64,000 nucleotides of DNA from an uncultured Bacilli bacterium (GCA_934130005.1 CAKOXD010000003.1:41980-105979), one strand, 5' to 3'. Counted from the stretch's first letter, positions 1,265 through 53,496 are shown. Notes: generated from the sequence alone by a model not told the origin. Program-made: numbers and translations.

Positions 1265-1762
1265 TTACGTTTTTTCTGATATTACTATTAGTCTTTTATT
1301 TTGTTTATTAGTACATGTCATAAGTATTAATGTTTTATTTTTATATTTTTTATTTAATATTTCATAATCATCAACATTAATTTCTTTTATTGTTTTTACT
1401 TTATATATTTCTTTTTTATCTAAATAAATTTCTATTAAATCATTTTCTTTTAAGTAATGTATTTTATGAAATACGTTATTTGTATTATGACCTGCAAGTA
1501 CAATCAAATTTTTTTTATTTATATCCATCATTCCTACATAGTTTTTATCCAGTATTTCATTTGTTGTTCCCTTTTTTATTATTTTATTTATGTTATATTT
1601 ATCTATTTTTATATACCCTTTATATTCTATATAATTATAATTATCATGTATATTATTGATTATTTTATTTTGATAATTATTTATTTTATATTCAAAATTA
1701 TATTTTATTATAACTATTAGTATTGATAAAAATATTAATACAAATCCAATTTTATTTTTCAT
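1265..1762 (-). CDS. Sortase (class B-like), N-terminal TM anchor
   Basis: ORF track 165 aa. It has an N-terminal hydrophobic anchor, a LAGHNT His motif, and TLILMTCTNKQNKRLIV (TLxTC catalytic Cys followed by Arg). It overlaps the 3' end of the upstream adhesin gene. Confidence 0.65.
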   Translation of the reverse strand: MKNKIGFVLIFLSILIVIIKYNFEYKINNYQNKIINNIHDNYNYIEYKGYIKIDKYNINKIIKKGTTNEILDKNYVGMMDINKKNLIVLAGHNTNNVFHKIHYLKENDLIEIYLDKKEIYKVKTIKEINVDDYEILNKKYKNKTLILMTCTNKQNKRLIVISEKT

Positions 1763-3794
1763 GTTTTAAACCTGACAATATGAGTGCTAATCCAATAAAT
1801 ATCAAATATGTTACAATAGTATTTATAATAATATCTTTATTACTTGTTTTAGGATAAACTATTTTTTTATTTATTAATTCTATTTCTTTTATTATTAGTT
1901 GTTCATCTTGTTTATTATTTAAATCTATATCATATATATTTTCATCTATATAAAATCCAGTTAATGTTTCTATTTCTTTTATATAATATTTTCCTATTGG
2001 AAGATCTTTTGATATAGCTATAGAATTATTTGTTGTTAAAATTTCAATTAATTCATCTTTTTTATATATTATTTTATTATTATCTAATATATCTTCTTTA
2101 GCATATAAATTAAATTTAACATTTGATAATTTTATAAGTTTATTATTTAAAAGTTTTCCATATTTTAGTATTTTTATCTTTCCAATTTGTTTTTTATTAT
2201 ATATGTTTAATACCATTTCTTCATCACTATTTATAGAAAATTCTATGTTTTTATCTTTTATATATCCTACGGGTGGTATAATTTCTTCTAACAAATATTT
2301 TCCACCTTTTATATCTAATTCAATTATTCCATTTTTTGTTTTAAATATTTCTCCATTATTTATATAATTATTACTATTTAAATCTTTTATTTTAAATGAT
2401 GCTTCTTTTAATATATTTTCTTTTGTATCAATATCTTTTTTTAAAATTTTTAATTTTGTTTTTATAATTTCATCATATAAATTAACAATTTTATCTTTAT
2501 TACTCTTTATTTCTACATAAAAATCATTTACTTTTTTATATCCAAACGTTGTATTTTTTTGAACTATTTTATATTTTCCATATATAAGATTTGTATATGC
2601 TTCTCCATTTATATTGGTAGTTATTTTATCTACTAATTTGTTATCCATGTCATATATTTCAAATATTATATTTTTTTCTTTTGATTTTAATGAATCATTT
2701 TTTAAATATTTTTTTATTATTAATTTACTTTTAATTATATCTTCTTTTAATTCTATTTTAGTGTTTTCTTTATCGATTTTTATATTATATATATTATTAT
2801 CTATTTCATAACCAAGTGGTGCTTGTACTTCTTTTAATATATAATCTCCATATTTTAAATCTTTTACATTAGCTATTCCATCTTTACCTATAGTTATTGT
2901 TTCTATTAAATTATTATTTTTATCATATAAATTATATTTAGCATTTTCTACACTAGCACTTCCTCTTTTTAAACTATTTAAGGTTTCACTATCTATTTTT
3001 TTTATTTCTAATTTTCCTGAATATACTTCTACTTCTATTTCTTTTTCTATTTTATCAATATATCCCCTTATCATTATAGATTGTCCTTTATTTGCTGTAT
3101 ATGGTATTGTTATATGTGAATGATTTCCATCTTTTTTTATTAATTTAATTTTATATTTTCCATCTTTTTTTGGATTTATTATTAATTTATTATTTTCTAT
3201 TTTTAAATTTAATGAACTATCTGCTTCTATATTAAATTCATTTAATGATTCAATATTCATTTCTTTTGTATCATTAATAGACATTTTTATATTTTCTATA
3301 CTTGGAAGTTTATTATAATTTTCTATTAATGTTTCTATTTCCTTTTCTTCTTTTTGAAATCTTTCAATTCTTTCTCCTTTAAATTTATTTGTATAGTATA
3401 TATCAGCATCTTTATCCATTTCTTTCCACAGCATTATTTGAGTTATAGCATACCATTTTAAATCCGTATGATCTTTATAATTATATCCAAAATAAGCTAT
3501 TTCTTTTATTCTTTTATATTTCTCTGTTGAGATATTAAGATACTTTTCTATCGAATAAAATCTAGCCGTATATAATTCATCTTCATATAAGGTATCAGAT
3601 GGTGTTAAACAATATACCGGTAAATTATCTCCCTCTCTTTTTATAACTCTCATTAGTTGTGATTTAGTAAAATCACCTTTTTTATATGTAGCATATACAC
3701 CTGTTACATAATTGTCTTCATAAAAATATTCTGCCTTTACATCTGTTGTTAAACATATAATTATAAATGTAATTATAATTAAAAATTTCTTCAT
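1752..3794 (-). CDS. Cell-wall anchored thioester-domain (TED) adhesin with repeated CnaB/SpaA-like domains
   Basis: 680 aa with a signal peptide. The N-terminal domain carries VYCLTP (Cys) and AITQIMLW, matching the TQxA(I/V)W thioester signature. At least three ~90-aa repeats follow, with a prealbumin-like pattern (…GKYKI.., ..GYI/YEID..). The C-terminal YPKTS sequence is followed by a hydrophobic helix and a basic tail (sorting signal). Confidence 0.7.
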   Translation of the reverse strand: MKKFLIIITFIIICLTTDVKAEYFYEDNYVTGVYATYKKGDFTKSQLMRVIKREGDNLPVYCLTPSDTLYEDELYTARFYSIEKYLNISTEKYKRIKEIAYFGYNYKDHTDLKWYAITQIMLWKEMDKDADIYYTNKFKGERIERFQKEEKEIETLIENYNKLPSIENIKMSINDTKEMNIESLNEFNIEADSSLNLKIENNKLIINPKKDGKYKIKLIKKDGNHSHITIPYTANKGQSIMIRGYIDKIEKEIEVEVYSGKLEIKKIDSETLNSLKRGSASVENAKYNLYDKNNNLIETITIGKDGIANVKDLKYGDYILKEVQAPLGYEIDNNIYNIKIDKENTKIELKEDIIKSKLIIKKYLKNDSLKSKEKNIIFEIYDMDNKLVDKITTNINGEAYTNLIYGKYKIVQKNTTFGYKKVNDFYVEIKSNKDKIVNLYDEIIKTKLKILKKDIDTKENILKEASFKIKDLNSNNYINNGEIFKTKNGIIELDIKGGKYLLEEIIPPVGYIKDKNIEFSINSDEEMVLNIYNKKQIGKIKILKYGKLLNNKLIKLSNVKFNLYAKEDILDNNKIIYKKDELIEILTTNNSIAISKDLPIGKYYIKEIETLTGFYIDENIYDIDLNNKQDEQLIIKEIELINKKIVYPKTSNKDIIINTIVTYLIFIGLALILSGLKHEK

Positions 3795-5908: not shown

Positions 5909-7720
5909 TTATTTTACCAAGAATTTTCTAATAACTCTATCAAGTTCATTACGATCGATTGGTTTTGATAAATAGTCACTAAAATGATCTTCATTTATGT
6001 ATTTTTCCTTCATACCACTTATAGCATTTGCTGTTAATATAATTGTTGGTATATCAAAATTATCAAGTACTTTTAAATTGTTATAAGTTTCTACACCACT
6101 CATATTTGGCATCATATCATCCATTAATATAAGATCGTATTTTTCACCCATATTTATTTTTTCAATACATGCTTGACCACTTGTTACTGATTCAATATTT
6201 AAATTGTAATCTTTTAATAATCTTGTAGCAACTTTTATATTTAAATTATTATCATCTACTATTAGAACTTTTTTATCACTTACATCTATTTCTTTTTTTT
6301 CTAGTTTTTCTTCTTCTATTTTAATTGGTTCTCTTGATACAATACTTTGATCAATTGCAACTGTAAATCTTGAACCTTCTCCATATATACTTTGAACTAC
6401 TATTTTTCCATTCATTAAATCTATTAATTTTTTTGTAATAGCAAGACCAAGTCCTGTTCCTTCTATCGTAATATTTTTTTCTAAATCAAATCTTTCAAAT
6501 TTTGTAAATAATTTATCTATATTTTCTTTTTTTATTCCTATTCCAGAATCTTCTACAGATATTATAAGTCTACATATATTATTTTTTACAACACTTGATA
6601 CTTTAAATTCTATATATCCCTCTTTAGTATATTTAACAGCATTAGTAAGTAAGTTTAAAATAATTTGTTTTATTCTAGTTTGATCACCATATAGTATTGA
6701 TGGAATTGTCTTATCAAAATTTGTTCTAAATTCTATATTTTTATCTCCTAAACGAGCTTTTGTTAATGCGACTAAATCAGATAATACTAAATTTATATCA
6801 TATTCAGTATTAACTATTTCTATTTTTCCTGCTTCTATTTTACTTATGTCTAGTATTCCATTTACAAGTTCCAATAGATTTTGAGAAGCATTTACTATGT
6901 CTTTTACTTCTTCTTTAGCACTTTGTGGGATATCTTCTTCTTCAAGTGCGGATGAAAATCCTACTATAGCATTTAATGGTGTTCTAATTTCGTGACTCAT
7001 ATTTGATAAGAATTCTGATTTAGCATTATTTGCTCTTTCTGCTTGTTCACGTGCAATATTAAGTTGTTCTATCATTTTTATATCTGGATTTTCTATTGTA
7101 AAATACATTATTAAATTTATGAATGCTAACATAAATGCTTGAAATACAATTTTTGGGAAATTTATTCTAATTAATACTGCTAAGCTTGCTAAAATAATAA
7201 GAGCAATTATAGGTATTAACTTTTTACTTTTAATATTTTTAAAATCTTTTAATATATAGATAATTACTGATATAAATATTGTAACAACTATTATACTTAA
7301 ACAGAATATCAAATAAACAGTTGCTGGTCCATTTGAGTCATTTACATTGTTTTCATTAATGATATTAACTTTTAATAGCATGATAATTATCGAAACAATA
7401 ACTGCCGTTATATTTAATATCTTTGTTATTATTGTTTTTTTATTTATATTTAAATTTAGAATATATTTTAAGAAGGAATATGCCCATAAAAATATTAAAA
7501 CATAATCTAATTTAACAATAAAATATGATATTTCAACAGTGCCTAATGTTTTTAAAATCATTAGTCCTATTATCTCTAAAGCCGATTGAATTAAACTTAT
7601 ACTTATTAAATAACCATATATTCTTGTTTCAGCATTATCTACTCTTTTTTTACCAAAAAAAATAATATAAAGTAAAAATGATATCAAAAAACCACATATA
7701 GGATATTCTAAATTACTCAT
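5909..7720 (-). CDS. Hybrid sensor histidine kinase (multi-TM sensor, HisKA, HATPase_c, C-terminal REC)
   Basis: 603 aa. It has about 6 N-terminal TM helices, the [11 protein letters not shown]-box, a G-rich ATP lid (GTGLGLAI) and a C-terminal receiver domain ([10 protein letters not shown]…[11 protein letters not shown]). Confidence 0.8.
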
Positions 7721-9092: not shown

Positions 9093-9190
9093 AATATCCC
9101 CCTTTTTTATAGTTATGTATACTATCATAAATTATATATAAAGTCAAATTTTTGTTCGTAAAAAAAAGGAATTTATTTTTTATTCCTTTT
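9093..9190 (-). promoter_or_regulatory. Promoter cassette A: terminator hairpin, LexA-box-like operator overlapping -35, extended -10 and GGGGG RBS
   Basis: Minus strand reads GGAAT…ATTCC hairpin + T-run, ACGAACAAAAATTTGAC (operator plus TTGACT -35, + coordinates 9143..9159), a 17-nt spacer, TAGTAT (9124..9119) and AAGGGGGAT. It is near-identical to cassette B at 11060..11148. Confidence 0.5.
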
Positions 9191-9823
9191 AGCAAGTAAA
9201 TTATCTAATACTTGGACAATTGTCCCATATCCTAGGAAAAACATATAAACTATAAAGCAATTAATCATGACACCTATTACTCCATATTTATTTATATCCA
9301 TATAGAAATATGGATATATTTCGCCATTTAAAAATCTTCCGCCAAGTATTAAGTATATTAACACAAATAATTGATATAAAATCAATACTAAACTCCATAT
9401 AATAGGATATTCTCTTTTTAATTTTCCTTTTTCTCCAAATACTAAATAATCAAATATTACCATTAAAGGTACTACTAAATGAACTAAATTGCATTCAAGT
9501 TCATGACCTTTAAAAGCTCCCATTCCATCTGTTGATGATAATAATATATTATATATAAACATTGTTATAGTTATTGCCATTGTAACCATACCTTTAAATA
9601 TATAATAAGTATCATTTTTATTTATTTTATGTGTTATTGTTTGTATTACTAATACTAAAAAATATATCAAACATATTAAATTACTTAAATTAGTAAAATA
9701 TACTATTCCTTCTTTAAGTCCTAAAAACTTAAAGTTCAAATAAAGAGCTATTGTTGTCACTATAATAATTAAAATTCTATATATTAGTTTTATTTTTTCT
9801 TTCATATTACACCTATTTTCCAT
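9173..9823 (-). CDS. Integral membrane protein (about 6 TM), unknown function
   Basis: 216 aa and highly hydrophobic. It lies between the two duplicated promoter cassettes. Confidence 0.4.
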   Translation of the reverse strand: MENRCNMKEKIKLIYRILIIIVTTIALYLNFKFLGLKEGIVYFTNLSNLICLIYFLVLVIQTITHKINKNDTYYIFKGMVTMAITITMFIYNILLSSTDGMGAFKGHELECNLVHLVVPLMVIFDYLVFGEKGKLKREYPIIWSLVLILYQLFVLIYLILGGRFLNGEIYPYFYMDINKYGVIGVMINCFIVYMFFLGYGTIVQVLDNLLAKRNKK

Positions 9824-9875
9824 AACTAGTATATACTAATTATATATATAAGTAAATTAAATTAGTAAAACAAAT

Positions 9876-9905
9876 GTCAAAAAAAGACTAATTTTTTAGT
9901 CTTTT
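9876..9905. terminator. Bidirectional terminator hairpin
   Basis: aaaaaaagactaattttttagtcttttt forms the AGACTAA/TTAGTCT stem flanked by A- and T-runs. Confidence 0.5.
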
Positions 9906-20884: not shown

Positions 20885-21241
20885 CTAATTATTATTGTTG
20901 TTGTTATTATTGTTATTATTATTATTTGATGATGAACCAGAGTATCCTCCCGAACCACTTGATGAAGTATAATGTGGTGTTATTCTAAATATAGTATTAC
21001 TTATTAATATAGCATCAAATGCACTTGTTTTTGGACTTGCTTCTGTTGTTTTAACAATTTTTGTTCCTTGTTTATAATTTATATACTTATTTGTAGTGTT
21101 TATTGAATTATTTTTATCTTCTGATAAAAAATCATATATTTCATTTAGTTGTTCATCTGTAAGATTAAAATATTTGGATAGTTCATAACATCTTTTCTTT
21201 CTTATGATTTCATTATATGTTTTAGCTTCTTTATTTATCAT
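20885..21241 (-). CDS. Small protein with Ser/Gly/Tyr-rich tail ending in poly-Asn (13 N)
   Basis: 118 aa; …TPHYTSSSGSGGYSGSSSNNNNNNNNNNNNN. Its start overlaps the stop of the upstream radical SAM gene (ATGA). Confidence 0.45.
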   Translation of the reverse strand: MINKEAKTYNEIIRKKRCYELSKYFNLTDEQLNEIYDFLSEDKNNSINTTNKYINYKQGTKIVKTTEASPKTSAFDAILISNTIFRITPHYTSSSGSGGYSGSSSNNNNNNNNNNNNN

Positions 21242-22971
21242 AAATTTTCCTCCTTTAAGTAATAAAATTCTATATTTTGAAATGGTAAATTAATAGCATT
21301 TATATGATAATAAGCATTATTTTTTTGTTTTATATAGTGATAATCTCTTAAAGCATTAGTTGTAAAAAATATGTTATTTGGACTTTCAGTTGATAAGTAA
21401 TTACTATATTCTTTTATAAATTTTGTTATATCATAACAAAGATATTCTGATTTATCGCTTTTATTTTTTTCGAGTACGTTTTTATAGACTTGTAATGAAG
21501 CAATATGTTCTTGTTTTATTCTTCCTTCATCACCATATTGAATTAGATTTCCACTGAGTAATATAATATATAATGAATTATTTAAAGGATAATCACATTC
21601 CATATCAAGTAAATTATTTTTTATATAAAGTTTTATTTTGCTTTCTTCTGTTAAATAAATTATATCTCTTGATTTTTTTATTATTTGTGATTCTAGCTTA
21701 TATTCTGTATCATCAACTTTTAATATAAATGCTTCATCACTATAAATATATTTTAATTTAGGATCTTCATTTATTATGTTATGTAATGTTTTAATATTGT
21801 TTTCTTCTTGTGGAATATATTTTTCTATACTAGAGGGATGCATTTTAGAAACATAAAAATATGTTGAATCTAAATTAGTATCTTTTTCATAATTTCTTTT
21901 TTTATATAATTCTTGTTGTAATTTACATGTATATGATTTGTTGTTTTTATACACATTTTTTACAAATGGGCATCCTGTTTTACAAATATATAAGTATCCA
22001 CATTTACTACATTCATCATTAAATTCAAGTCTATTATGATTTAGAAACATTTTTTCACGTGCTGTTTTAAGTATTTCTTCTACAGTATTATTATATATGT
22101 TTCCAAAATAGTAGTCTTTATTTTTTTGTCCTCTAACACATGAATACATATCACCGTTTTTTTCTAGTAAAAAGAATTTCTCACCACAGTTATCACAGTT
22201 TGTACAATATTCTGGTCCAAATTCATTAAACCAAGCTCCATTTACTCCTTTATCTAAAGATGTTCCATCAAATTCTTTGTGCATTCTATTAAAAAATTCT
22301 ACTTGTTCTTCTTCTGTTAATGGTGTAAGTAAATTATTACTATTAAATTGAAATCCTATCATGAAATTAAAGTCATTCATATCAAGTGATGTATTTTTAT
22401 CTAAAAATTTTATATTTTCTATCATTTCATCTATTAACAAATAATGTTCTTTAAAAATAGTTGCGGATACTTTCTTTTTATTGTTAATATTATTTAATAA
22501 TTCTATATTCTTTAGTATCTTATCAAGCGTTGTTTTATTTCCTTTTGTTACTCTAAATTTATCATGAAGTGAAAATGGTAAATCTAAACTTCCACTTACT
22601 GAGACATTATATTCTTTTATTGTATCTATGTGTTTATCTAAATTATATAAATTTGTTTTTATATGTGGACTTAAGGCTTTAAATCCATTTTCTTCTAACA
22701 GTTTTTTATTTTTTTTATAATAATTATATATATATTCAATTAATTCTCTAAATTCCTCTTTTTTTAGTGTTGTTACTTCTCCACCATGAAGTGATATATT
22801 AAATGGGATCACATTATCTTGCTTTAATTTTTCTACTGTATATTTTAGTGTATCTAATGCGCTATGTTTTGTACTGATATCTTTTGTATTTTCTTCTAAA
22901 TAACAATATTTACATGCCATATTACATGCCATAGTAGGCACATATAATAAATGAATAAATTTATAATCCAT
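21238..22971 (-). CDS. Radical SAM / SPASM-domain protein with uncharacterised ~220-aa C-terminal extension
   Basis: 577 aa. CNMACKYC (CX3CX2C) sits at residues 16-23. A SPASM-like Cys cluster reads CTNCDNCGEKFF…CVRG…CSKCGYLYICKTGCPF. Confidence 0.75.
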   Translation of the reverse strand: MDYKFIHLLYVPTMACNMACKYCYLEENTKDISTKHSALDTLKYTVEKLKQDNVIPFNISLHGGEVTTLKKEEFRELIEYIYNYYKKNKKLLEENGFKALSPHIKTNLYNLDKHIDTIKEYNVSVSGSLDLPFSLHDKFRVTKGNKTTLDKILKNIELLNNINNKKKVSATIFKEHYLLIDEMIENIKFLDKNTSLDMNDFNFMIGFQFNSNNLLTPLTEEEQVEFFNRMHKEFDGTSLDKGVNGAWFNEFGPEYCTNCDNCGEKFFLLEKNGDMYSCVRGQKNKDYYFGNIYNNTVEEILKTAREKMFLNHNRLEFNDECSKCGYLYICKTGCPFVKNVYKNNKSYTCKLQQELYKKRNYEKDTNLDSTYFYVSKMHPSSIEKYIPQEENNIKTLHNIINEDPKLKYIYSDEAFILKVDDTEYKLESQIIKKSRDIIYLTEESKIKLYIKNNLLDMECDYPLNNSLYIILLSGNLIQYGDEGRIKQEHIASLQVYKNVLEKNKSDKSEYLCYDITKFIKEYSNYLSTESPNNIFFTTNALRDYHYIKQKNNAYYHINAINLPFQNIEFYYLKEENL

Positions 22972-22980
22972 ACTACCACC

Positions 22981-24639
22981 CTAATTATAATATAAATATA
23001 ATGAAATAAAATTTGAATATGTATTAAGAGTTTCTACTTTCGATACTTTTACAGCTATATCGGAGTTTATTACTTTATATGGCGTATCTTTAGTTATTGT
23101 AAATGTAGTAACTTCTCCATTCATTTTATATTCCATTATGAATTTTTTTACTCCATTTTCTTCTTTTACTTCTTTTAAAGTCAAAGTTGAGTTATATATT
23201 TTTGAGTCTTTATAATAAACAAAGTTTTTTTCTTCTTTGATAGAGAAAATTGAAAATGCCACATGTTTAAATTTACTTTCATCAAAAAAGCTTACTTTTT
23301 TATTTTCTACTTTTGGTTCTTCTACAGTATTATCTTCTTCACCAAATTGTTTTACAATTGTTGGACTTTCTTTAAATGCTCTTTCATTTATATATATATT
23401 ACTTGGAAGTGTTATAGAATATAATCTACTACATTTTCTAAAAGCGGATGATCCTATTTCATTTAATTTACTGTTTTCTGAAATTTTTACTTCACTTAAA
23501 TTAGTTGCCCCATAAAATGCGTGTCCACCTATTCTTGTAACATTATCTGGTATTTCTATACTTTTTAATGATGTACATTCTTCAAAGGTATTACCTCTAA
23601 TTTCTGTTATATTTTCTGGTAATTTAATACTTTCAAGCGAACTACAATTTTTAAATGCACTTCCATGTATGGAAGTAATATTATCACTTAGATTTATATT
23701 TTTTAATGATTTGCATCCTTCAAAGGTACTTCCATTTATTTCTGTTAATGTATCAGGTAGTTCTATTTTTTCTAATGAAGTACAGTTTTTAAATGCACTT
23801 CCTCCTAAATAATTTAAATTATTAGGAAGTTTTACATAAATTAAATTACTATCATTTAAAAATACTCTTCCTCTTATTTCTTTTATGCTATCTGGTAAAT
23901 ATATTTTTTTTAAGTTTCTTAAATTAGCAAACACATTTCCTCTTATACTTAATACTTTTTTTCCTTTATATGTTTCTGGCACTTTAATTTCTTCTTTATT
24001 TATTAGTCCCATTGTATAAAATCTTAATGAATATCCGTCTTCATATTTTTCATAAAACATCATTGGTTTAAAAAATATAGCCATTGGTAAAATTATTGAT
24101 ATTAAAATAGGAATAATTTTTTTAGCATAATTTGGCATTACTTTATCACTTATAACAGATGATACAACAAGTGAAATATCTTCATCTGGTCTTGCTTTTA
24201 CTTGTTTATAAAGATAATTTACTATATTGTATTTTTTTATAAACATAATATAAACTACTACGTTTAAAATAAGCAAAAGATACATTAAACTTGATATATG
24301 AAAAAATACAGTTGAAAAAATTAAAAAATTTAAAATAGAAAAAATTAAAGTTAAATTAAATTTTCTTTTTTCTATATATTCTATTGCATCTTTATAATTA
24401 TAATTATTTTTTTTGAGTTCTTCTTTTATAAATGTTTTTATTATTTCCTTTTCACTTTTTCTATATATTGGTTCTATATCATTTTGTTCTTGTGATATTA
24501 TACCTGGTATTTTAAGGCTACTTCTACCTTTTTTATTAACTAAAATAACAATAACCATTATAATTATTGGTAAAGAACTAAACATTATCGAAAAAAATGT
24601 TGAAATTAATGTAATAACTAAATTAAAAATCACTTCCAT
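22981..24639 (-). CDS. Multi-TM N-terminal domain + BspA-type leucine-rich repeat (LRR_5) protein
   Basis: 552 aa with about 5 TM helices. At least 7 repeats fit the pattern L.DSI..I…AF..C.SL..I.LP. Confidence 0.65.
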   Translation of the reverse strand: MEVIFNLVITLISTFFSIMFSSLPIIIMVIVILVNKKGRSSLKIPGIISQEQNDIEPIYRKSEKEIIKTFIKEELKKNNYNYKDAIEYIEKRKFNLTLIFSILNFLIFSTVFFHISSLMYLLLILNVVVYIMFIKKYNIVNYLYKQVKARPDEDISLVVSSVISDKVMPNYAKKIIPILISIILPMAIFFKPMMFYEKYEDGYSLRFYTMGLINKEEIKVPETYKGKKVLSIRGNVFANLRNLKKIYLPDSIKEIRGRVFLNDSNLIYVKLPNNLNYLGGSAFKNCTSLEKIELPDTLTEINGSTFEGCKSLKNINLSDNITSIHGSAFKNCSSLESIKLPENITEIRGNTFEECTSLKSIEIPDNVTRIGGHAFYGATNLSEVKISENSKLNEIGSSAFRKCSRLYSITLPSNIYINERAFKESPTIVKQFGEEDNTVEEPKVENKKVSFFDESKFKHVAFSIFSIKEEKNFVYYKDSKIYNSTLTLKEVKEENGVKKFIMEYKMNGEVTTFTITKDTPYKVINSDIAVKVSKVETLNTYSNFISLYLYYN

Positions 24640-24725: not shown

Positions 24726-25340
24726 TTATTTGTATTTCATAATTTTTTTATTACTACTTGAAACATATTCTTCAAGATATTGATGTTCATTAAGTGATTT
24801 TTTTACATCAATATTATAATCTACTACTGTACAATGTGCATAAACATCATCATAATATTCTCTTATTCTTACACCACCTAATGATTCCATAGTTTTCCAT
24901 GATGCTGGATTATTTAAATCGGCATCCATAAAAACTTTATCTATTCCATATTCATCACATACTTTTAATCCTAAATATAAATTAATTTTATTATATCCTT
25001 TTTTTCTTTCACTTGGTCTTATTCCATAACCAATATGTCCACCAAATTTTTTTAGTGTTTCATTTAAAGCTAATCTTATATTAATCATACCTATAATTTT
25101 GTTATCATTTTCTCTTATTAAGAAATATGTTCTTGCTGGAACTTTTTCTTCATTTGGTATTCTAGCATAGTCTTCTTCTAATTTTTCTAACCAGCCTTCA
25201 TAATTATCTAAGTATTTTTTTAAACTACTAGAACCATTAATATCAGAATTAGCATTTAAATGTTCTTGAATATATTCTATCGCTTCTTCCTTTCTTTCAA
25301 TAGATGGAATTTCTAAATATAATTTTTCCATTAATATCAC
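24726..25340 (-). CDS. GNAT-family N-acetyltransferase
   Basis: 204 aa. An acetyl-CoA-binding-like segment (GYGIRPSERKKGY) and a GNAT-like length. Confidence 0.55.
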   Translation of the reverse strand: MILMEKLYLEIPSIERKEEAIEYIQEHLNANSDINGSSSLKKYLDNYEGWLEKLEEDYARIPNEEKVPARTYFLIRENDNKIIGMINIRLALNETLKKFGGHIGYGIRPSERKKGYNKINLYLGLKVCDEYGIDKVFMDADLNNPASWKTMESLGGVRIREYYDDVYAHCTVVDYNIDVKKSLNEHQYLEEYVSSSNKKIMKYK

Positions 25341-25349
25341 CTTTTCTTC

Positions 25350-25522
25350 TTATATTTTTTTAAAATAGTACACATTCTCTAGTAATTGTAATTTTTCAAG
25401 CATTCTTGTTTTTATCAATTTACCACCCATGTGTTTATAAAATTCATTACTAGGATTTCCAATAAGGCATCCTATTAACATTTTATCATAACCCATATTT
25501 TTTAATTCTTCTATTCTAATTA
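25350..25522 (-). pseudogene. Possible remnant of a second GNAT-like gene (C-terminal fragment only)
   Basis: Minus-frame translation gives …KLIRIEELKNMGYDKMLIGCLIGNPSNEFYKHMGGKLIKTRMLEKLQLLENVYYFKKI* after an in-frame stop. It has no start or N-terminal domain. Confidence 0.25.
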
Positions 25523-25604
25523 ATTTTCTTTTAATAAATTAAAATAATTCTATCTATCTTGTATATAAATTTATTATCATAAATTGAATGTTTCTAAAGT
25601 TTAT

Positions 25605-25705
25605 TTTTGATATCTTGATATATTAAGTATAATTCCCATACTACATAATGTTATTAATAAACTAGAGCCTCCATAACTTAAAAATGGAAGTGTTACACCT
25701 GTTAC
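25605..25705. repeat. Direct repeat copy 1 of the ftsW 3' end (101 bp, 1 mismatch to 26319..26419)
   Basis: tttgatatcttgatatattaagtataattcccatactacataatgttatta(a/g)taaactagagcctccataacttaaaaatggaagtgttacacctgttact. Copy 1 is followed in frame by its own TAA (25601..25603). Confidence 0.8.
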
Positions 25706-25781
25706 TAGTTCAAAGGGAGATAATTTCATAAGTTGCAGTTCTAAGGAGAGATGATTTTTATAATTATTTATCACAAAAACA

Positions 25782-25810
25782 TTGTATATAGAATATTTGC
25801 TTACTATAAT
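25782..25810 (+). promoter_or_regulatory. Sigma-A-like promoter for the small hydrophobic peptide ORF
   Basis: TTGTAT (25782..25787), a 17-nt spacer and TATAAT (25805..25810). Confidence 0.4.
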
Positions 25811-25876
25811 ACTTTTAGGAACATTTAGTTGTTGAGTGTCTACCTCTACTCTACATAGAGAGGAGGTTATTGATAT

Positions 25877-25960
25877 ATGAGCAAGAAGGATTTTTTAATC
25901 TCAATCTTACTTTTTATAATCATCTTATTAATAGCTTTACTCTTCATTATCTTGAAGTAG
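25877..25960 (+). CDS. 27-aa hydrophobic peptide (candidate type I toxin-like small membrane peptide)
   Basis: [32 protein letters not shown] lies 7 nt upstream. The RBS is embedded in the imperfect hairpin CCTCT…AGAGG. The imperfect hairpin GGCACT…AGTGCC lies downstream. Confidence 0.3.
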
Positions 25961-26111
25961 TATCAACTATAAATAAAAATGGCACTCATCTTTCAAGATA
26001 AGTGCCTTAACGTATATTACGGGTAGACATTCAGCTTGACGAACTAAATGTTCCCTTTTTTATTATATGCAAGAATACTTGCTACATACATAATAACATA
26101 TTTTTAATCAT

Positions 26112-26285
26112 TTAGCAATTATTTGATAAAAAAATATTTTTTATTATTTTTTCTATCTCAAAAGATATACATTCACTACCAGTTTCATCTATAACGCTAA
26201 ATACTTTCCCATAATTATTTAACCAAGAAAAATCTTGATATTCTCTTAATTTAAATTCTACATCGTCTATTTTTTGTATTATCAT
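26112..26285 (-). CDS. 57-aa ORF, possibly an N-terminal gene fragment
   Basis: MIIQKIDDVEFKLREYQDFSWLNNYGKVFSVIDETGSECISFEIEKIIKNIFLSNNC. It is below the ORF-track cutoff and I recognised no domain. Confidence 0.2.
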   Translation of the reverse strand: MIIQKIDDVEFKLREYQDFSWLNNYGKVFSVIDETGSECISFEIEKIIKNIFLSNNC

Positions 26286-26313
26286 TTATATCACTTACAT
26301 CAATTATACCACA

Positions 26314-27411
26314 CTATCTTTGATATCTTGATATATTAAGTATAATTCCCATACTACATAATGTTATTAGTAAACTAGAGCCTCCATAACTTAAAAATGG
26401 AAGTGTTACACCTGTTACTGGTATTAATCCTGTTACTACCATTAAATTTAATAATGCTTGAAATGATAGACCAAAAGTAATACCAAATGCTAAAAATTTA
26501 CCAAATGGTTCTTTTATATTTCTTGATATTTTAAGTCCTTTAATTATAATTATTAAAAATAATGTAGCAACTATTAATATTCCCATAAATCCAAATTCTT
26601 CACTTATAATTGAAAATATAAAATCTGTTTGAGGTTCTGGTAAATAAAAGTGTTTTTGTCTTGAATTTAAAAATCCATATCCAAATAAACCACCTGGACC
26701 TATAGCATATAAACTCTGTATTATTTGAAATCCGCTTCCTAAAGGATCACTCCATGGATTTAAAAAGGATAATATTCTTTTTAATCTATAAGGTGCGACT
26801 ACAATAAGTCCTGTTATTCCAAGTAGTCCTATTAAAAATAAATATATAAAGAATTTTAAATTAACCCCACCTACAAATAATAATCCAATTATTGTTACTA
26901 TTATAATAAATCCTGTTCCAAAATCTGGTTGTAACATAATAAGAGCAAATATAATAAAAGTTATAAATAGAATTGGTAATACACCTTTTTTGATATTCTT
27001 TATTATTTTTTCATTATTGCTTAAATATTTTGATGTAAATATTATAAGTGCCAGTTTACAGGCTTCACTTGGTTGAATTCCAAATGATCCTATTCCAAAC
27101 CAACTACGACTTCCATTTCTAACTGTTCCTATTCCTGGAATTGCTACTAATATTAATAAAATAATACAAGCAAATAATATTATATTGGCTTTTTCATAGT
27201 ATATTTTATAATCTATTTTGCTTATTATTATCATCAAAAACATACCAATTAATAAAAATAATGCTTGATTTTTCACAAATTTAAACGGATCGTTAAATTT
27301 GTATTCTGCCCATACATAAGATGCTGAATAAACCATGATAACTCCAAATATACTAATTGTTAAAATAGCTAAAAATAATGTATAATCTATACTGTTTTTT
27401 TTCATAACCAT
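26314..27411 (-). CDS. FtsW/RodA/SpoVE family peptidoglycan glycosyltransferase (SEDS)
   Basis: The track ORF runs 26314..27489. The likely start is MVMKKNS (27411), where the MraY TGA overlaps the ATG. About 10 TM helices and conserved SEDS blocks (…PSEACKLALII…, …GLLFVGG…). Confidence 0.85.
   Translation of the reverse strand: MVMKKNSIDYTLFLAILTISIFGVIMVYSASYVWAEYKFNDPFKFVKNQALFLLIGMFLMIIISKIDYKIYYEKANIILFACIILLILVAIPGIGTVRNGSRSWFGIGSFGIQPSEACKLALIIFTSKYLSNNEKIIKNIKKGVLPILFITFIIFALIMLQPDFGTGFIIIVTIIGLLFVGGVNLKFFIYLFLIGLLGITGLIVVAPYRLKRILSFLNPWSDPLGSGFQIIQSLYAIGPGGLFGYGFLNSRQKHFYLPEPQTDFIFSIISEEFGFMGILIVATLFLIIIIKGLKISRNIKEPFGKFLAFGITFGLSFQALLNLMVVTGLIPVTGVTLPFLSYGGSSLLITLCSMGIILNISRYQR
26319..26419. 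repeat. Direct repeat copy 2 (authentic 3' end of ftsW/spoVE-family gene)
   Basis: It matches 25605..25705. Confidence 0.8.
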
Positions 27412-28391
27412 ACTCCATAAATTATTGCAAGCATAGATCCTATAAGTCCGATAATCCAAAATAGTTTTACTATATCTCTTTCTTCCCATCCTATTTTTTC
27501 AAATGTATGATGTATTGGAGTCATTAAGAATAACCTTTTATGAGTTAGTTTATAATAATATCTTTGTATTAAGCATGTAAGCGTTTCAAGTACAAAGACA
27601 ATTCCTATTAGTATTAAAAGTAATTCATGTCTAGATAATATAGCAAGTGATCCTAAAGTTGCACCAAGTGCTAAAGACCCAGTGTCTCCCATAAATATTT
27701 TAGCAGGATTTGTATTAAATACTAAAAATCCCATGATACCACCTACTAATATAAAACAGAATAAAGCGATTTCTTCATATCCTTCTAACCATCCAGTATT
27801 ATACATTATTATTCCAAATGTAGTAATTGATATTACTGAAAGACCTCCTGCTAAACCATCTAATCCATCTGTTATGTTTACTGCATTTGAACTTGCTACT
27901 AAAATAAATAAAATAAATAATCCATAAAACCAATTAATATCTAATTTTAAATTTAATGAATGAATCCATAATAGTGGTTCATTATCTGCTTTTAAAAATA
28001 AGTAAAAGAATACAATAGCAACTAGTATTTGAGATATTAATTTTTCTACTTCTGTTAATCCTTTGTTATTATTTCTTTTTATTATTAAATAATCATCTAA
28101 AAATCCTATTAATGAGTATGATAAAAAAGTAAATATTATAATAATAAAATTATAAGTTATACTAATTTTATTTGTAAAATATAAAACAAGAATAGAAAAT
28201 ATTGTTGAAAATATAAATATTAATCCTCCCATTGTTGGAGTATGTGACTTCTTTTTATGTCTTTCTTCTAAATATATACTGAGTCTTTGATTCGCTCTTT
28301 TTTTTAAAATTGGAATTAAGATGATTGCAAATAAAAGAGCTAACATAAATCCTATTAGACTTGCTAATATAGCTTTTGTAAGTATAAGCAT
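27402..28391 (-). CDS. mraY: Phospho-N-acetylmuramoyl-pentapeptide transferase
   Basis: 329 aa and 10 TM. Conserved MraY blocks: NAVNITDGLDGLA, HHTFE…, and D-D-rich loops. Confidence 0.9.
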   Translation of the reverse strand: MLILTKAILASLIGFMLALLFAIILIPILKKRANQRLSIYLEERHKKKSHTPTMGGLIFIFSTIFSILVLYFTNKISITYNFIIIIFTFLSYSLIGFLDDYLIIKRNNNKGLTEVEKLISQILVAIVFFYLFLKADNEPLLWIHSLNLKLDINWFYGLFILFILVASSNAVNITDGLDGLAGGLSVISITTFGIIMYNTGWLEGYEEIALFCFILVGGIMGFLVFNTNPAKIFMGDTGSLALGATLGSLAILSRHELLLILIGIVFVLETLTCLIQRYYYKLTHKRLFLMTPIHHTFEKIGWEERDIVKLFWIIGLIGSMLAIIYGVWL

Positions 28392-28401
28392 TAATTCCCT
28401 C

Positions 28402-30306
28402 CTAACCTAACATTAGTTTTACTACTTCACCTTCTAGTATTCTTTCATTACTACTAGGTGATTGATATATTACTTTTTCTCCTTCTCCTGTATATTCAAC
28501 TTTAAAATCTTTTAATTCCTTTAATGCATCTTTTAATGTTTTCCCTTCTACATTAGGTACTTTTATATATTTTTTATCATTATAATTATATTTTTTTTCA
28601 CTTGCTCCATTTGGTTTTTTAATATTAAGTATCCTAATTGCATCGTTTAATATTACCTTAGCTATAGGTGCTGCTATTGTTCCACCATATTGTGTTGCTC
28701 CCTTGGCGTTATCAATTGCTATATATACAACAACTTCTGGATCATTTGCTGGTAAAAATCCTATAAATGATACTATATAGTTTCCTACCATATATCTTCC
28801 ATCTTTTACTTTTTGAGCAGTCCCTGTTTTTCCTCCTACTCTATAACCATCAATAAAAGCTGTTCTTCCTGTTCCATTTGTTACAACACTTTCAAGTGCA
28901 TATCTTACTTTTTTACTTGTATCTTCGCTTATTACTTTTCTTACAACTTGGGGTTTATTTTCCAGTATTACTGAATTTGTTTCTGGTTCATTTATACTTT
29001 TTACAATATATGGTTTATATAATATTCCACCATTTATTGCTGCACTAACTGCTGTTATTTGTTGAATTGGAGTTACCGATACTCCTTGGCCAAATGCAGT
29101 AGTTGCAAGTTCTACCGGTCCTACTTTGTCTAAACTAAATAATATTCCTTTACTTTCTCCATTTAATTCAACCCCTGTTTTCTTACCAAAACCAAATTTG
29201 TTTATATATTCAAACAATTTTTCTTTTCCTAATTTTTGCCCTATAGTTACAAATCCTGGATTGCAAGAATTCTCTACTACTTGTAGATATGTTTGACTTC
29301 CATGACCACCGTGTTTCCAACATTTAATTCTAGCATTTTCTACTTTTATACTTCCTGAATCATGATAATGGTCATTTTCTAAATCTATTAATTTTTCTTC
29401 TAAGGCACTTGCTAATGATATGATTTTAAATGTACTACCTGGTTCATATGTCATCCACACAGGTAAATTTCTATTTATTTCTTCTACTTTATAATTTTTA
29501 TATTTACTTGGTGAAAAATTAGGACGAGATGATATTGCAAGTATTTCTCCTGTTTTTGGATTCATAGCTATACCCAATGCTTGATCTGGATTATATTTAG
29601 ATACCGCATTATCAAGTTCTCTTTCAAGTGATTCTTGAAGTTCAAAATTTATAGTTAAAGTCATATTCATTCCATCTTGTGGTTTCTCATAACTTTCTTC
29701 TAATTCTAATTTATTTCCTTTTGCATCACTAGCATATTTTATCGAACCATATTCTCCTGTTAAATACTTATCATAAGTAAGTTCTAATCCACTTAATCCT
29801 TGATTATCTATTCCAACAAATCCTATTGTATGAGCTAGCATTTTGTCATATGGATAATATCTTTTCGATTCTTTTATAAGATATACTCCATCTAATTTTA
29901 AGGCATTTATTTTGTCTGCTACTTCATATGATAATCTTCTTCCAATTGGATGAACTCTTTCTATTGATGTTCTTTTATTAACATGTTTGTACATTTCTTC
30001 ATATGATGTATTTAGAATGTTCGCTAATTCTTTAGCAACTACTTTTTTATTTTTGATTTGATTAGGAACTAATACTAATGATACTGTTGTTTTGTTACTT
30101 GCAAGTATTTTGGAATTTCTATCATATATTTTTCCTCTATTTGCTTCTACTGGTAAATTTCTATTCCATAAGGAACTTGCTAAACTATTTAGTTTTCCAT
30201 AACTAATAACTTGAATATAAAATACTTTTAATATTATCACAACAAATAAAACTACTATAAAAAAAGTTATTATTTTAATTCTATTATGTATATTTTTATA
30301 AAACAT
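28402..30306 (-). CDS. Class B penicillin-binding protein (FtsI/SpoVD-like transpeptidase) with C-terminal PASTA
   Basis: 634 aa. STFK, SCN and KTGTA motifs plus a PASTA domain at the C-terminus. Confidence 0.85.
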   Translation of the reverse strand: MFYKNIHNRIKIITFFIVVLFVVIILKVFYIQVISYGKLNSLASSLWNRNLPVEANRGKIYDRNSKILASNKTTVSLVLVPNQIKNKKVVAKELANILNTSYEEMYKHVNKRTSIERVHPIGRRLSYEVADKINALKLDGVYLIKESKRYYPYDKMLAHTIGFVGIDNQGLSGLELTYDKYLTGEYGSIKYASDAKGNKLELEESYEKPQDGMNMTLTINFELQESLERELDNAVSKYNPDQALGIAMNPKTGEILAISSRPNFSPSKYKNYKVEEINRNLPVWMTYEPGSTFKIISLASALEEKLIDLENDHYHDSGSIKVENARIKCWKHGGHGSQTYLQVVENSCNPGFVTIGQKLGKEKLFEYINKFGFGKKTGVELNGESKGILFSLDKVGPVELATTAFGQGVSVTPIQQITAVSAAINGGILYKPYIVKSINEPETNSVILENKPQVVRKVISEDTSKKVRYALESVVTNGTGRTAFIDGYRVGGKTGTAQKVKDGRYMVGNYIVSFIGFLPANDPEVVVYIAIDNAKGATQYGGTIAAPIAKVILNDAIRILNIKKPNGASEKKYNYNDKKYIKVPNVEGKTLKDALKELKDFKVEYTGEGEKVIYQSPSSNERILEGEVVKLMLG

Positions 30307-52502: not shown

Positions 52503-52546
52503 AATTATATCATTTATTTATAAAAAATAAAAGTATCTTTTATTAG

Positions 52547-53496
<950 letters not shown>

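Follow-up and report, generated by a model that had tools for sequence, protein, structure and literature searches.

A strain-variable cassette between ftsW and a displaced copy of its 3' end in an uncultured gut Bacilli bacterium

An insertion at the 3' end of ftsW

In a 64,000-nucleotide stretch of DNA from an uncultured Bacilli bacterium (GCA_934130005.1 CAKOXD010000003.1:41980-105979; the whole stretch is called the window below), the 3' end of an ftsW/spoVE-type SEDS gene occurs twice. The DNA between the two copies, window positions 25710-26313, is a strain-variable 604-bp insertion lying between the intact ftsW gene and the displaced native last 34 codons of that gene; it is absent from a conspecific contig. 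The join falls within a 102-bp homologous block and leaves ftsW whole. The first-pass annotation of the window had proposed an insertion into the 3' end of ftsW with duplication of the gene end, and the 102-bp repeat found around the 604-bp insert bears this out; the repeat coordinates given there also stand, except that the distal copy was one base out of register. The window is part of a metagenome-assembly contig (ENA ERZ27287182, k141_239987; loci L081 and L170 in our comparison are this same contig). Its host is an uncultured member of the gut Bacilli that is very AT-rich (~24% G+C), and the closest FtsW relatives, 88% identical, come from metagenome-assembled genomes (MAGs) labelled Bacilli, Tenericutes or Firmicutes.

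All genes around the insert lie on the minus strand, where ftsW is the last gene of a block that begins with an intact, SpoVD-like penicillin-binding protein (PBP) gene (28402-30306) and continues through mraY (27402-28391) to ftsW itself (26314-27405). The ftsW product of 363 aa is intact, with a match to Pfam PF01098 covering profile positions 3-354 of 356 (E 7e-117), and the gene call is identical on public contigs. The gene-side repeat copy (26319-26420, minus strand) consists of the final 34 ftsW codons (V-T-G-V-T-L-P-F...Q) and ends AGA TAG (Arg-TAG). The distal copy, referred to here as the ftsW orphan (25601-25709, core 25606-25707, minus strand), holds 34 codons that match PF01098 profile positions 322-355 and ends AAA TAA (Lys-TAA); the TAA at 25601-25603 is the separate stop codon that had been ascribed to the displaced copy. 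Immediately before the orphan lies cassette DNA (...CCCTTTGAACT|AGTAACAGG). In alignment, the core repeats (25606-25707 versus 26319-26420) extend over 102 nt at an offset of 713 and differ at a single position (25658 A, 26371 G), and a repeat finder extends the pair to 108 nt (25602-25709 versus 26315-26422) at 97% identity. This is the sole long, high-identity dispersed direct repeat within the window, and a 51-mer taken from it occurs exactly 2 times, versus 0 expected from shuffles.

We compared the window with 80 species representatives and 80 metagenome loci, together with conspecific contigs obtained by exact-protein look-ups (compared loci carry L-numbers). The conspecific contigs are 98-99.5% identical to the window at the nucleotide level. 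The occupied structure is reproduced in L083, L084, L088, L169, L171, L172 and L190, which derive from other samples and assemblers, and mis-assembly is thereby excluded. The empty site that the first-pass annotation had asked for, with ftsW followed directly by the sequence left of the distal repeat, was located in L082. This conspecific contig, 99.4% identical to the window over PBP-mraY-ftsW, aligns to window 29264..26315 and then passes straight to 25709..25543, so that ftsW is joined directly to the sequence left of 25601. The single block in L082 combines the gene-side allele (C) at the internal polymorphic site with a distal-type end (AAA TAA plus flank), which is the allele mix predicted for one crossover inside the block.

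Further evidence on the origin of the two ends comes from their distribution. The Lys-TAA end is found in relatives and in the empty strain, while the Arg-TAG end always adjoins the cassette, indicating that the gene-side end arrived with the insert and that the distal copy is the displaced native end. Judging by these linkages, the last codon and stop of the present ftsW (AGA TAG) are supplied by the insert, and the resident Lys-TAA end became the orphan. The orphan's Lys-TAA end and the flank downstream of it are identical to L082. One and the same cassette stands before two downstream haplotypes, that of the window and that of L169/L172, in which the orphan ends AAG TAG and other genes follow. 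Polymorphisms in the right-hand part of the orphan (site c, last codon and stop) track the haplotype; the left part of the orphan and the cargo are common to both.

Recurrence of the junction and possible routes of cassette movement

The region downstream of ftsW is hypervariable across 80 species of the clade. When each species representative and metagenome locus was searched for a further copy of its own ftsW end, the architecture of the window turned up in six or more additional species of this low-GC gut Bacilli clade, with cargos of 0.9-8 kb that are often defence-related and sometimes form arrays. The same junction with other cargos agrees with the second alternative of the first-pass annotation, a cassette exchanged at a recombination hotspot. 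In L019 a 99-nt repeat (98% identity) surrounds 4.1 kb of membrane-protein and other genes, and in L099 a 106-nt repeat surrounds an 8.1-kb glycan-synthesis cluster. An array is present in L102 and in L173, a longer version of the same locus, in the order ftsW, ORF6N-a, orphan, a 311-aa open reading frame (ORF), orphan, ORF6N-b; ORF6N genes or fragments followed by decayed orphans are present in L080, L053 and L176-L180. The orphan corresponds in every case to FtsW residues 330-363 and starts within ~10 nt of GT(T/A)ACAGG, the codons V-T-G. In four species the repeat runs to the stop codon or ends no more than 4 nt away from it, versus a perfect repeat of ~230 nt in L173, whose copies also share the initial 125 nt beyond the stop (the ORF6N promoter and 5' end). 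This comparison suggests that the left end is fixed and that the right end is simply where homology ends.

Cargo of these cassettes is elsewhere the native neighbour that follows ftsW. Homologues of the type I toxin-antitoxin-like module predicted in the window cassette (described below) occupy this position in L014 and L033, and an ORF6N gene (~290 aa) lies directly after ftsW in 25 of 181 loci (15 of ~140 distinct sequences). After its module L014 reads ...AACTAGTAAC..., and the window junction is ...AACT|AGTAACAGG; AGTAAC is common to both, and the window joint is consistent with a microhomology join. On its left side the insert continues into a homologous ftsW end.

Duplication of a gene end around a cassette is also seen away from ftsW. 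In L014 a 106-nt direct repeat (1392-1496 and 3028-3133, 99% identity) spans the end of an SLT-like upstream gene, the PBP promoter and the first 14 PBP codons, and flanks an AbiEi/AbiEii pair (cassette 1497-3027) in which no recombinase was found. The empty site for this cassette is present in L033 (~3029-3142), and both L014 copies share L014-specific alleles relative to L033. The occurrence of ~100-nt duplications at other gene ends argues for a general homology-driven route over one dedicated att site.

The first-pass annotation had likened the ftsW repeats to the attL and attR sites left by site-specific integration, while noting that the cassette carries no integrase. The latter observation was confirmed. 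A motif screen revealed no recombinase in the window cassette, the other cargos, the window ORFs or the 6-10 kb downstream of ftsW in ~190 loci, this screen being a crude regular expression that had no positive control for tyrosine recombinases. Among viral contigs, 113 pattern matches to the FtsW C-terminus included none encoding a relative, blastn of the whole element against phage and plasmid collections gave no match, and a literature search on an ftsW attB or on ORF6N-PLD nucleases returned nothing relevant. With no integrase in the cargos, the ftsW loci or the window, and no phage or plasmid carrier, the attL/attR interpretation is not borne out. We also rejected an integron cassette (both strands of both copies fold no better than shuffled sequence, z +0.7 to +1.2, and no integrase was found) and a diversity-generating retroelement (neither the insert nor its surroundings hold an ORF large enough for a reverse transcriptase, the copies differ by one C/T and by changes in the last codon and stop, with no restriction to adenines, and an empty site exists). 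As for insertion of a homing endonuclease, the window cassette holds no nuclease gene. The large serine recombinases of these genomes were likewise rejected as movers of the ftsW cassettes. They belong to a separate element, with a recombinase of 527-593 aa, that splits the SpoVD-like PBP gene just upstream of mraY and is present in both an empty (L082) and an occupied (L169) strain. This element is found in the window species and in others (L082 3442-6001; L169/L171 1240-7015; also L101, L147, L176 and L179). In L082 it carries genes for a type IV secretion system coupling protein and a methylase, and the uninterrupted PBP gene of the window is its empty site.

Overall we favour, with about half of our confidence, movement of the cassettes by host homologous recombination and no dedicated integrase. 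A naive recipient has one ftsW end, with which donor DNA carrying ftsW, cargo and orphan would recombine; ftsW would provide the left homology arm, and the ~100-bp orphan a portable right arm. Insertion, swapping, stacking (the newest cassette beside ftsW) or repeat-by-repeat deletion would then be possible whatever lies downstream. The founding joint, between the end of the cargo and V-T-G, would have been a rare illegitimate event of the microhomology type that later spread. This reading is favoured by the empty site, the linkage of Arg-TAG to the cassette, the orphan ends that track haplotype, the unrelated cargos, the lack of a recombinase in the loci screened, the right end at the limit of homology, the cargo that is native behind ftsW elsewhere, the joint consistent with microhomology and the duplications at other gene ends.

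Several points weigh against it, in addition to the crudeness of the recombinase screen and the limited flanks that it covered. The L082 contig stops 59 nt beyond the stop codon, and since its ftsW is almost identical to that of the window, L082 may be a secondary repeat-by-repeat deletion instead of the ancestral empty state; a comparison of occupied and empty strains aimed at a donor recombination tract in ftsW showed nearly identical sequences. Strain-specific alleles are shared between the two repeat copies (site a in L169; L014), and gene conversion has to be invoked for this. In all species the orphan start stays within ~10 nt although the conserved block of ftsW begins ~30 nt earlier, and we therefore rejected the idea that the orphan simply starts at the upstream limit of ftsW conservation. 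As homology leaves the fixed V-T-G start unexplained, the homologous recombination model has to assume common descent of the junction followed by its spread. The crossover may lie at this point or elsewhere in the block; the orphan starts near GT(T/A)ACAGG, yet the polymorphisms of the window species fit a mid-block crossover equally well. A motif, CCC-(W)3-4-TGA-NNN, precedes several orphans that have different cargo and recurs at the end of the L014 AbiE cassette, and mini-remnants GGNGTTAC lie just upstream of two orphans; the motif and the remnants could be recombinase sites. Finally, the model presumes that these uncultured hosts are proficient in transformation and recombination, and the toxin-antitoxin function of the cargo is a prediction.

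The pre-orphan motif, the GGNGTTAC remnants and an 11-bp palindrome, CCTGT(T/A)ACAGG, at the boundary in 4 of the 6 ftsW genes examined keep a trans-acting enzyme as the main rival. The insert would then be a non-autonomous integrative element with the 102-bp blocks as attL and attR; GT(T/A)ACAGG at V-T-G would be the core, the rest of the block would rebuild the gene end, and a tyrosine or serine recombinase would be supplied in trans by the genome or by a helper element. We regard this as possible but rather unlikely. It would account for an orphan start that stays within ~10 nt across seven or more species, unrelated as their cargos are, and does not coincide with a step in conservation, and tandem arrays with decayed distal sites are what att-site accretion produces; an empty site exists, and large serine recombinases are common in these genomes. 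However, those observed sit in the PBP gene, in occupied and empty strains alike, and no autonomous integrase element appeared at the site in ~190 loci or in viral contigs, phages or plasmids. Duplications at other gene ends would demand several dedicated recombinases. Moreover, the two copies in a genome are 98-100% identical versus 15-25% divergence of ftsW between species, which is unusual for an element-borne gene end, and the identity in L173 continues 125 nt past the stop codon. A bolder version, which we consider improbable, is that the orphan blocks are sites of an undescribed, integron-like cassette capture. An enzyme acting in trans would read GT(T/A)ACAGG together with the pre-orphan motif and stack defence and addiction cassettes behind ftsW and other gene ends (PBP, rbgA), the ~100-bp gene-end copy taking the place of attC. 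Such an enzyme could be a recombinase that has gone unrecognised; the PLD-fold ORF6N protein, working via a covalent phosphohistidine intermediate, is a conceivable alternative.

A nuclease could instead trigger a homing-like capture, with a site-specific double-strand break at V-T-G repaired from a diverged donor through the ftsW end and the DNA downstream of it, microhomology joining, and the recipient's 34 codons left behind as the orphan. This would explain a fixed orphan start with a scatter of a few nucleotides, the variable cargo length and the identity of the cargo as the donor's downstream neighbour. The candidate nuclease is the ORF6N-PLD protein, whose C-terminal half has a predicted PLD-superfamily fold (mean pLDDT 72.6) with an invariant H-x-R-x4-D...G-x-S-x-K motif, and whose gene follows ftsW in the loci counted above, with tandem paralogues and fragments. 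Its standing was lowered by a full-length match of the protein to PDC-S05, a defence candidate in PADLOC (E 2e-94). A representative of PDC-S05 has been reported to protect against phages (bioRxiv 10.1101/2024.09.26.614923), and ORF6N-PLD is thus more simply read as cargo. The window has no ORF6N gene, duplications occur at other sites where ORF6N is lacking, the V-T-G sequence does not differ between loci with and without ORF6N and shows no signature of self-protection, and the catalytic Lys of ORF6N-PLD is replaced by Arg; we think this route quite unlikely. Less probable still, and very doubtful in our view, is a de novo target-site duplication of ~100 bp made by a transposition-like insertion with staggered cuts. 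The repeats do cluster at 99-108 nt, both at the ftsW 3' end and at the L014 PBP 5' end, and both copies share genome-specific alleles. But the repeats of four species end at or within 4 nt of the stop with homologous but different ends (AGA TAG/AAA TAA; AGA TAA/AGG TAA), which points to two homologous segments and not one copied segment; the L173 repeat reaches ~230 nt, and the cassettes have neither terminal inverted repeats nor a transposase. An artefact or trivial cause (mis-assembly, a plain tandem duplication, or a diversity-generating retroelement's template and variable repeats) has a negligible chance of being right. The data are a metagenome assembly and contigs L082, L084 and L088 break at the repeat, but these junctions recur across six or more independent samples and assemblers, one assembly having used k = 141, longer than the repeat. 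The copies differ at fixed positions, other species have decayed orphans, and the sequence beyond the orphan does not repeat the cargo. No reverse transcriptase is present, nor are the mismatches restricted to adenines.

The arrangement resembles several known systems in part. Integrase-less elements flanked by att sites accrete at a gene 3' end in the cis-mobilizable elements (CIMEs) at fda in Streptococcus thermophilus and in the pseudo-staphylococcal cassette chromosome (pseudo-SCC) elements at rlmH/orfX in staphylococci. Like these, the ftsW cassettes have recombinase-free cargo, gene-end direct repeats, tandem arrays, empty and occupied alleles in one species and an intact host gene. Unlike them, with short att cores of ~15-30 bp and integrase-bearing relatives at the site, the repeats here measure 99-108 bp or longer, and no such relative was seen in ~190 loci. 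The prophages e14 and phage 21 in E. coli icd, like actinomycete elements in tRNA genes, bring their target gene a substitute 3' end. The similarity to e14 and phage 21 lies in the incoming new 3' end, the displaced native end and a block of identity from the crossover to the gene end; elements of that type are 10-40 kb long with their own integrase beside att, whereas the window element has 0.6 kb and no integrase. Homology-facilitated illegitimate recombination, known from naturally transformable Acinetobacter and Streptococcus pneumoniae, offers another parallel. There, as may be the case here, one homologous anchor brings in adjacent foreign DNA, the other junction shows microhomology, no dedicated recombinase takes part and the cargo is neighbouring DNA of the donor. 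Its junctions are scattered, however, and usually delete recipient DNA, while in the present case the same codons are used in many species and the duplication is apparently reused as a homology arm.

The cargo recalls defence-island hotspots bounded by core genes, since it is of defence or addiction type (the PDC-S05 candidate, a kinase-like fragment with a weak PD-T4-6 match and the type I toxin-antitoxin-like module; AbiE at the PBP 5' site). In contrast to such hotspots, each cassette carries a copy of a core-gene end, giving integron-like arrays that lack IntI and attC. Mobile endonuclease ORFs of fungal mitochondria also bring a duplicate C-terminal segment, for example in atp6 of Allomyces, where, as at ftsW, an essential membrane-protein gene takes up the insertion close to its 3' end, gains a foreign C-terminus in frame and leaves its native C-terminus downstream as a pseudogene. 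The difference is that the Allomyces insert is a recognised homing endonuclease, whereas the window cassette has no nuclease and the ORF6N-PLD protein found elsewhere is defence-like.

If homologous recombination is indeed the route, reduced-genome gut bacteria would be shuffling defence and addiction genes without dedicated mobile-element machinery, and a ~100-bp tail of an essential gene would travel with each cassette as a universal landing pad. That would amount to a simple route for defence-island turnover, one missed by tools that seek integrases or transposases. If a dedicated enzyme is involved, the cassettes would represent a new capture system. Under both readings, the ftsW orphan offers a readily recognised sequence mark by which such cassettes could be sought on a large scale in metagenomic data, and further leads are an undescribed type I toxin-antitoxin-like family and a clear genomic niche for the PDC-S05 candidate.

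Predicted cargo of the window cassette

The gene content given by the first-pass annotation was confirmed, with a small-peptide gene and a 57-aa ORF inside the insert and a GNAT fragment just outside it. The small-peptide gene had been listed on its own, and its place in a type I toxin-antitoxin-like module had been missed. By its architecture, the insert apart from the 57-aa ORF appears to be a complete module of this kind belonging to an undescribed family, with its function a matter of prediction. The candidate toxin transcription unit (25782-26072, plus strand) would start from a promoter, TTGTAT-17 nt-TATAAT at 25782-25810, whose -35 element matches at 3 of 6 positions and which a promoter scan missed. 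It contains a Shine-Dalgarno sequence (GAGAGGAGG, 25857-25866, plus strand) and a gene for a 27-aa hydrophobic peptide (25877-25960, plus strand). The Shine-Dalgarno sequence is predicted to be sequestered by a hairpin of the 5' untranslated region (UTR), CCUCU...AGAGG. The 3' UTR overlaps the antisense gene and base-pairs with the transcript's 5' end (arms ~25818-25845 and 26025-26059). Consistent with a long 5'-3' closing helix, the fold of 25814-26072 has an energy of -78.8 kcal/mol (z = -7.8).

The candidate antitoxin small RNA (sRNA) gene lies convergently on the minus strand (25971-26118), with an extended -10 promoter, TTGCTA-17 nt-(TG)TATTAT, at 26118-26090. The predicted antisense transcript (~26089-25971, ~115 nt) folds into three hairpins (-38.3 kcal/mol, z = -5.9), would be fully complementary to the toxin 3' UTR, and ends at an intrinsic terminator with a U-tract (26006-25981) that is the only terminator found in the region by the promoter and terminator scan. 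The module has homologues in three other species. Those of L014 (related peptide MRTKTFILKVLRYISIILLLSTLLVLALKK) and L033, the latter with the 5' part of the toxin deleted, immediately follow the ftsW stop codon. The third, in L119 (16626-16908, related peptide MFKKDILIFSLIIIILLQLVVQLVK), lies between rpsB and another gene, indicating that the module family is not tied to the ftsW site. The closing-helix architecture of the toxin mRNA is shared by L014 (z = -5.8) and L119 (z = -6.5), and the promoter and the three-hairpin sRNA unit are conserved in L014, L033 and L119. The sRNA and module gave no Rfam match at the gathering threshold, and those up to E 10 were at chance level; the 27-aa peptide had no match in Pfam, NCBIfam or PADLOC. 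Described type I systems of Firmicutes include the par/Fst RNA I-RNA II pair of pAD1 and the TxpA/RatA and BsrG/SR4 pairs of Bacillus subtilis. The window module resembles these in its tiny hydrophobic peptide, a convergent antisense RNA over the 3' end of the toxin mRNA, a sequestered ribosome-binding site, a 5'-3' closing helix and its location in accessory DNA. It differs from the described systems in the lack of Rfam, Pfam and NCBIfam matches and in a peptide of 27 aa that is shorter than most. Such a pair would probably penalise loss of the cassette through repeat-to-repeat deletion.

The 57-aa ORF (26112-26285, minus strand) is an incomplete gene. It shares 85.6% nucleotide identity over 160 nt with the start of a longer gene in L191 and L192, and the homology ceases where the ORF ends, which makes it the 5' fragment of a kinase-like gene of ~275 aa. 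The remainder of the L191/L192 gene has weak Pkinase and PD-T4-6 (defence kinase) matches; the 57-aa ORF itself gave no match in Pfam, NCBIfam or PADLOC. Going by these similarities, it is a dead 5' scrap of a kinase-like gene of defence type. We also observed that its full-length relative is preceded, in L191 (3100-3190) and L192 (40-105), by an orphan 5' piece of rbgA/ylqF (...WYPGHMAKT, stop), which suggests that cassette sites at further conserved genes are likewise marked by gene-end orphans. The neighbours of the L191 gene include a 411-aa serine recombinase, AbiTii and a Zeta-toxin-like gene.

Surrounding accessory DNA

The DNA beyond the orphan is itself variable. Between the orphan and a leucine-rich-repeat (LRR) gene, the window has a further strain-variable accessory block (24726-25600) with a full GNAT gene and, beside it and outside the cassette, a C-terminal GNAT remnant (25350-25496, minus strand). 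In L169 and L171 this interval holds an extra 3.46 kb (L169 9834-13292) that encodes a 130-aa repeat protein, an HTH protein, ORFs of 289 and 199 aa and a 175-aa GNAT protein; in L172, tyrS follows the 130-aa ORF instead. In the 88%-related loci L001 and L002, the LRR and radical-SAM genes come immediately after ftsW. In the window these encode a BspA-type leucine-rich-repeat protein (22981-24639) and then a radical SAM/SPASM enzyme (21238-22971). L001 and L002 are contigs of one MAG, RGIG9051 (JAGBES010000032 and JAGBES010000006), that share the ftsW 3' end, the flank and the LRR/radical SAM order, a doubling that is either bin redundancy or a real duplication.

Downstream of ftsW in L028, repeats of 80 nt and 52 nt (7591-7714 and 9171-9414) flank a cassette with sigma-factor and anti-sigma-like genes, and the right-hand copy lies just upstream of an ORF for a serine-recombinase N-terminus (9428-9895). 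ORF6N-PLD (PDC-S05-like) genes form tandem runs of paralogues and fragments, up to four in a row, both beside ftsW and elsewhere (L187 2752-5931; L182-L186 3479-4873; L144 10576-12290). Farther along the window, a long run of 9-nt tandem repeats (52534-53472) encodes a collagen-like triple-helix protein, in a 302-aa ORF on the minus strand (52564-53472) that matches Pfam Collagen (E 8e-33).

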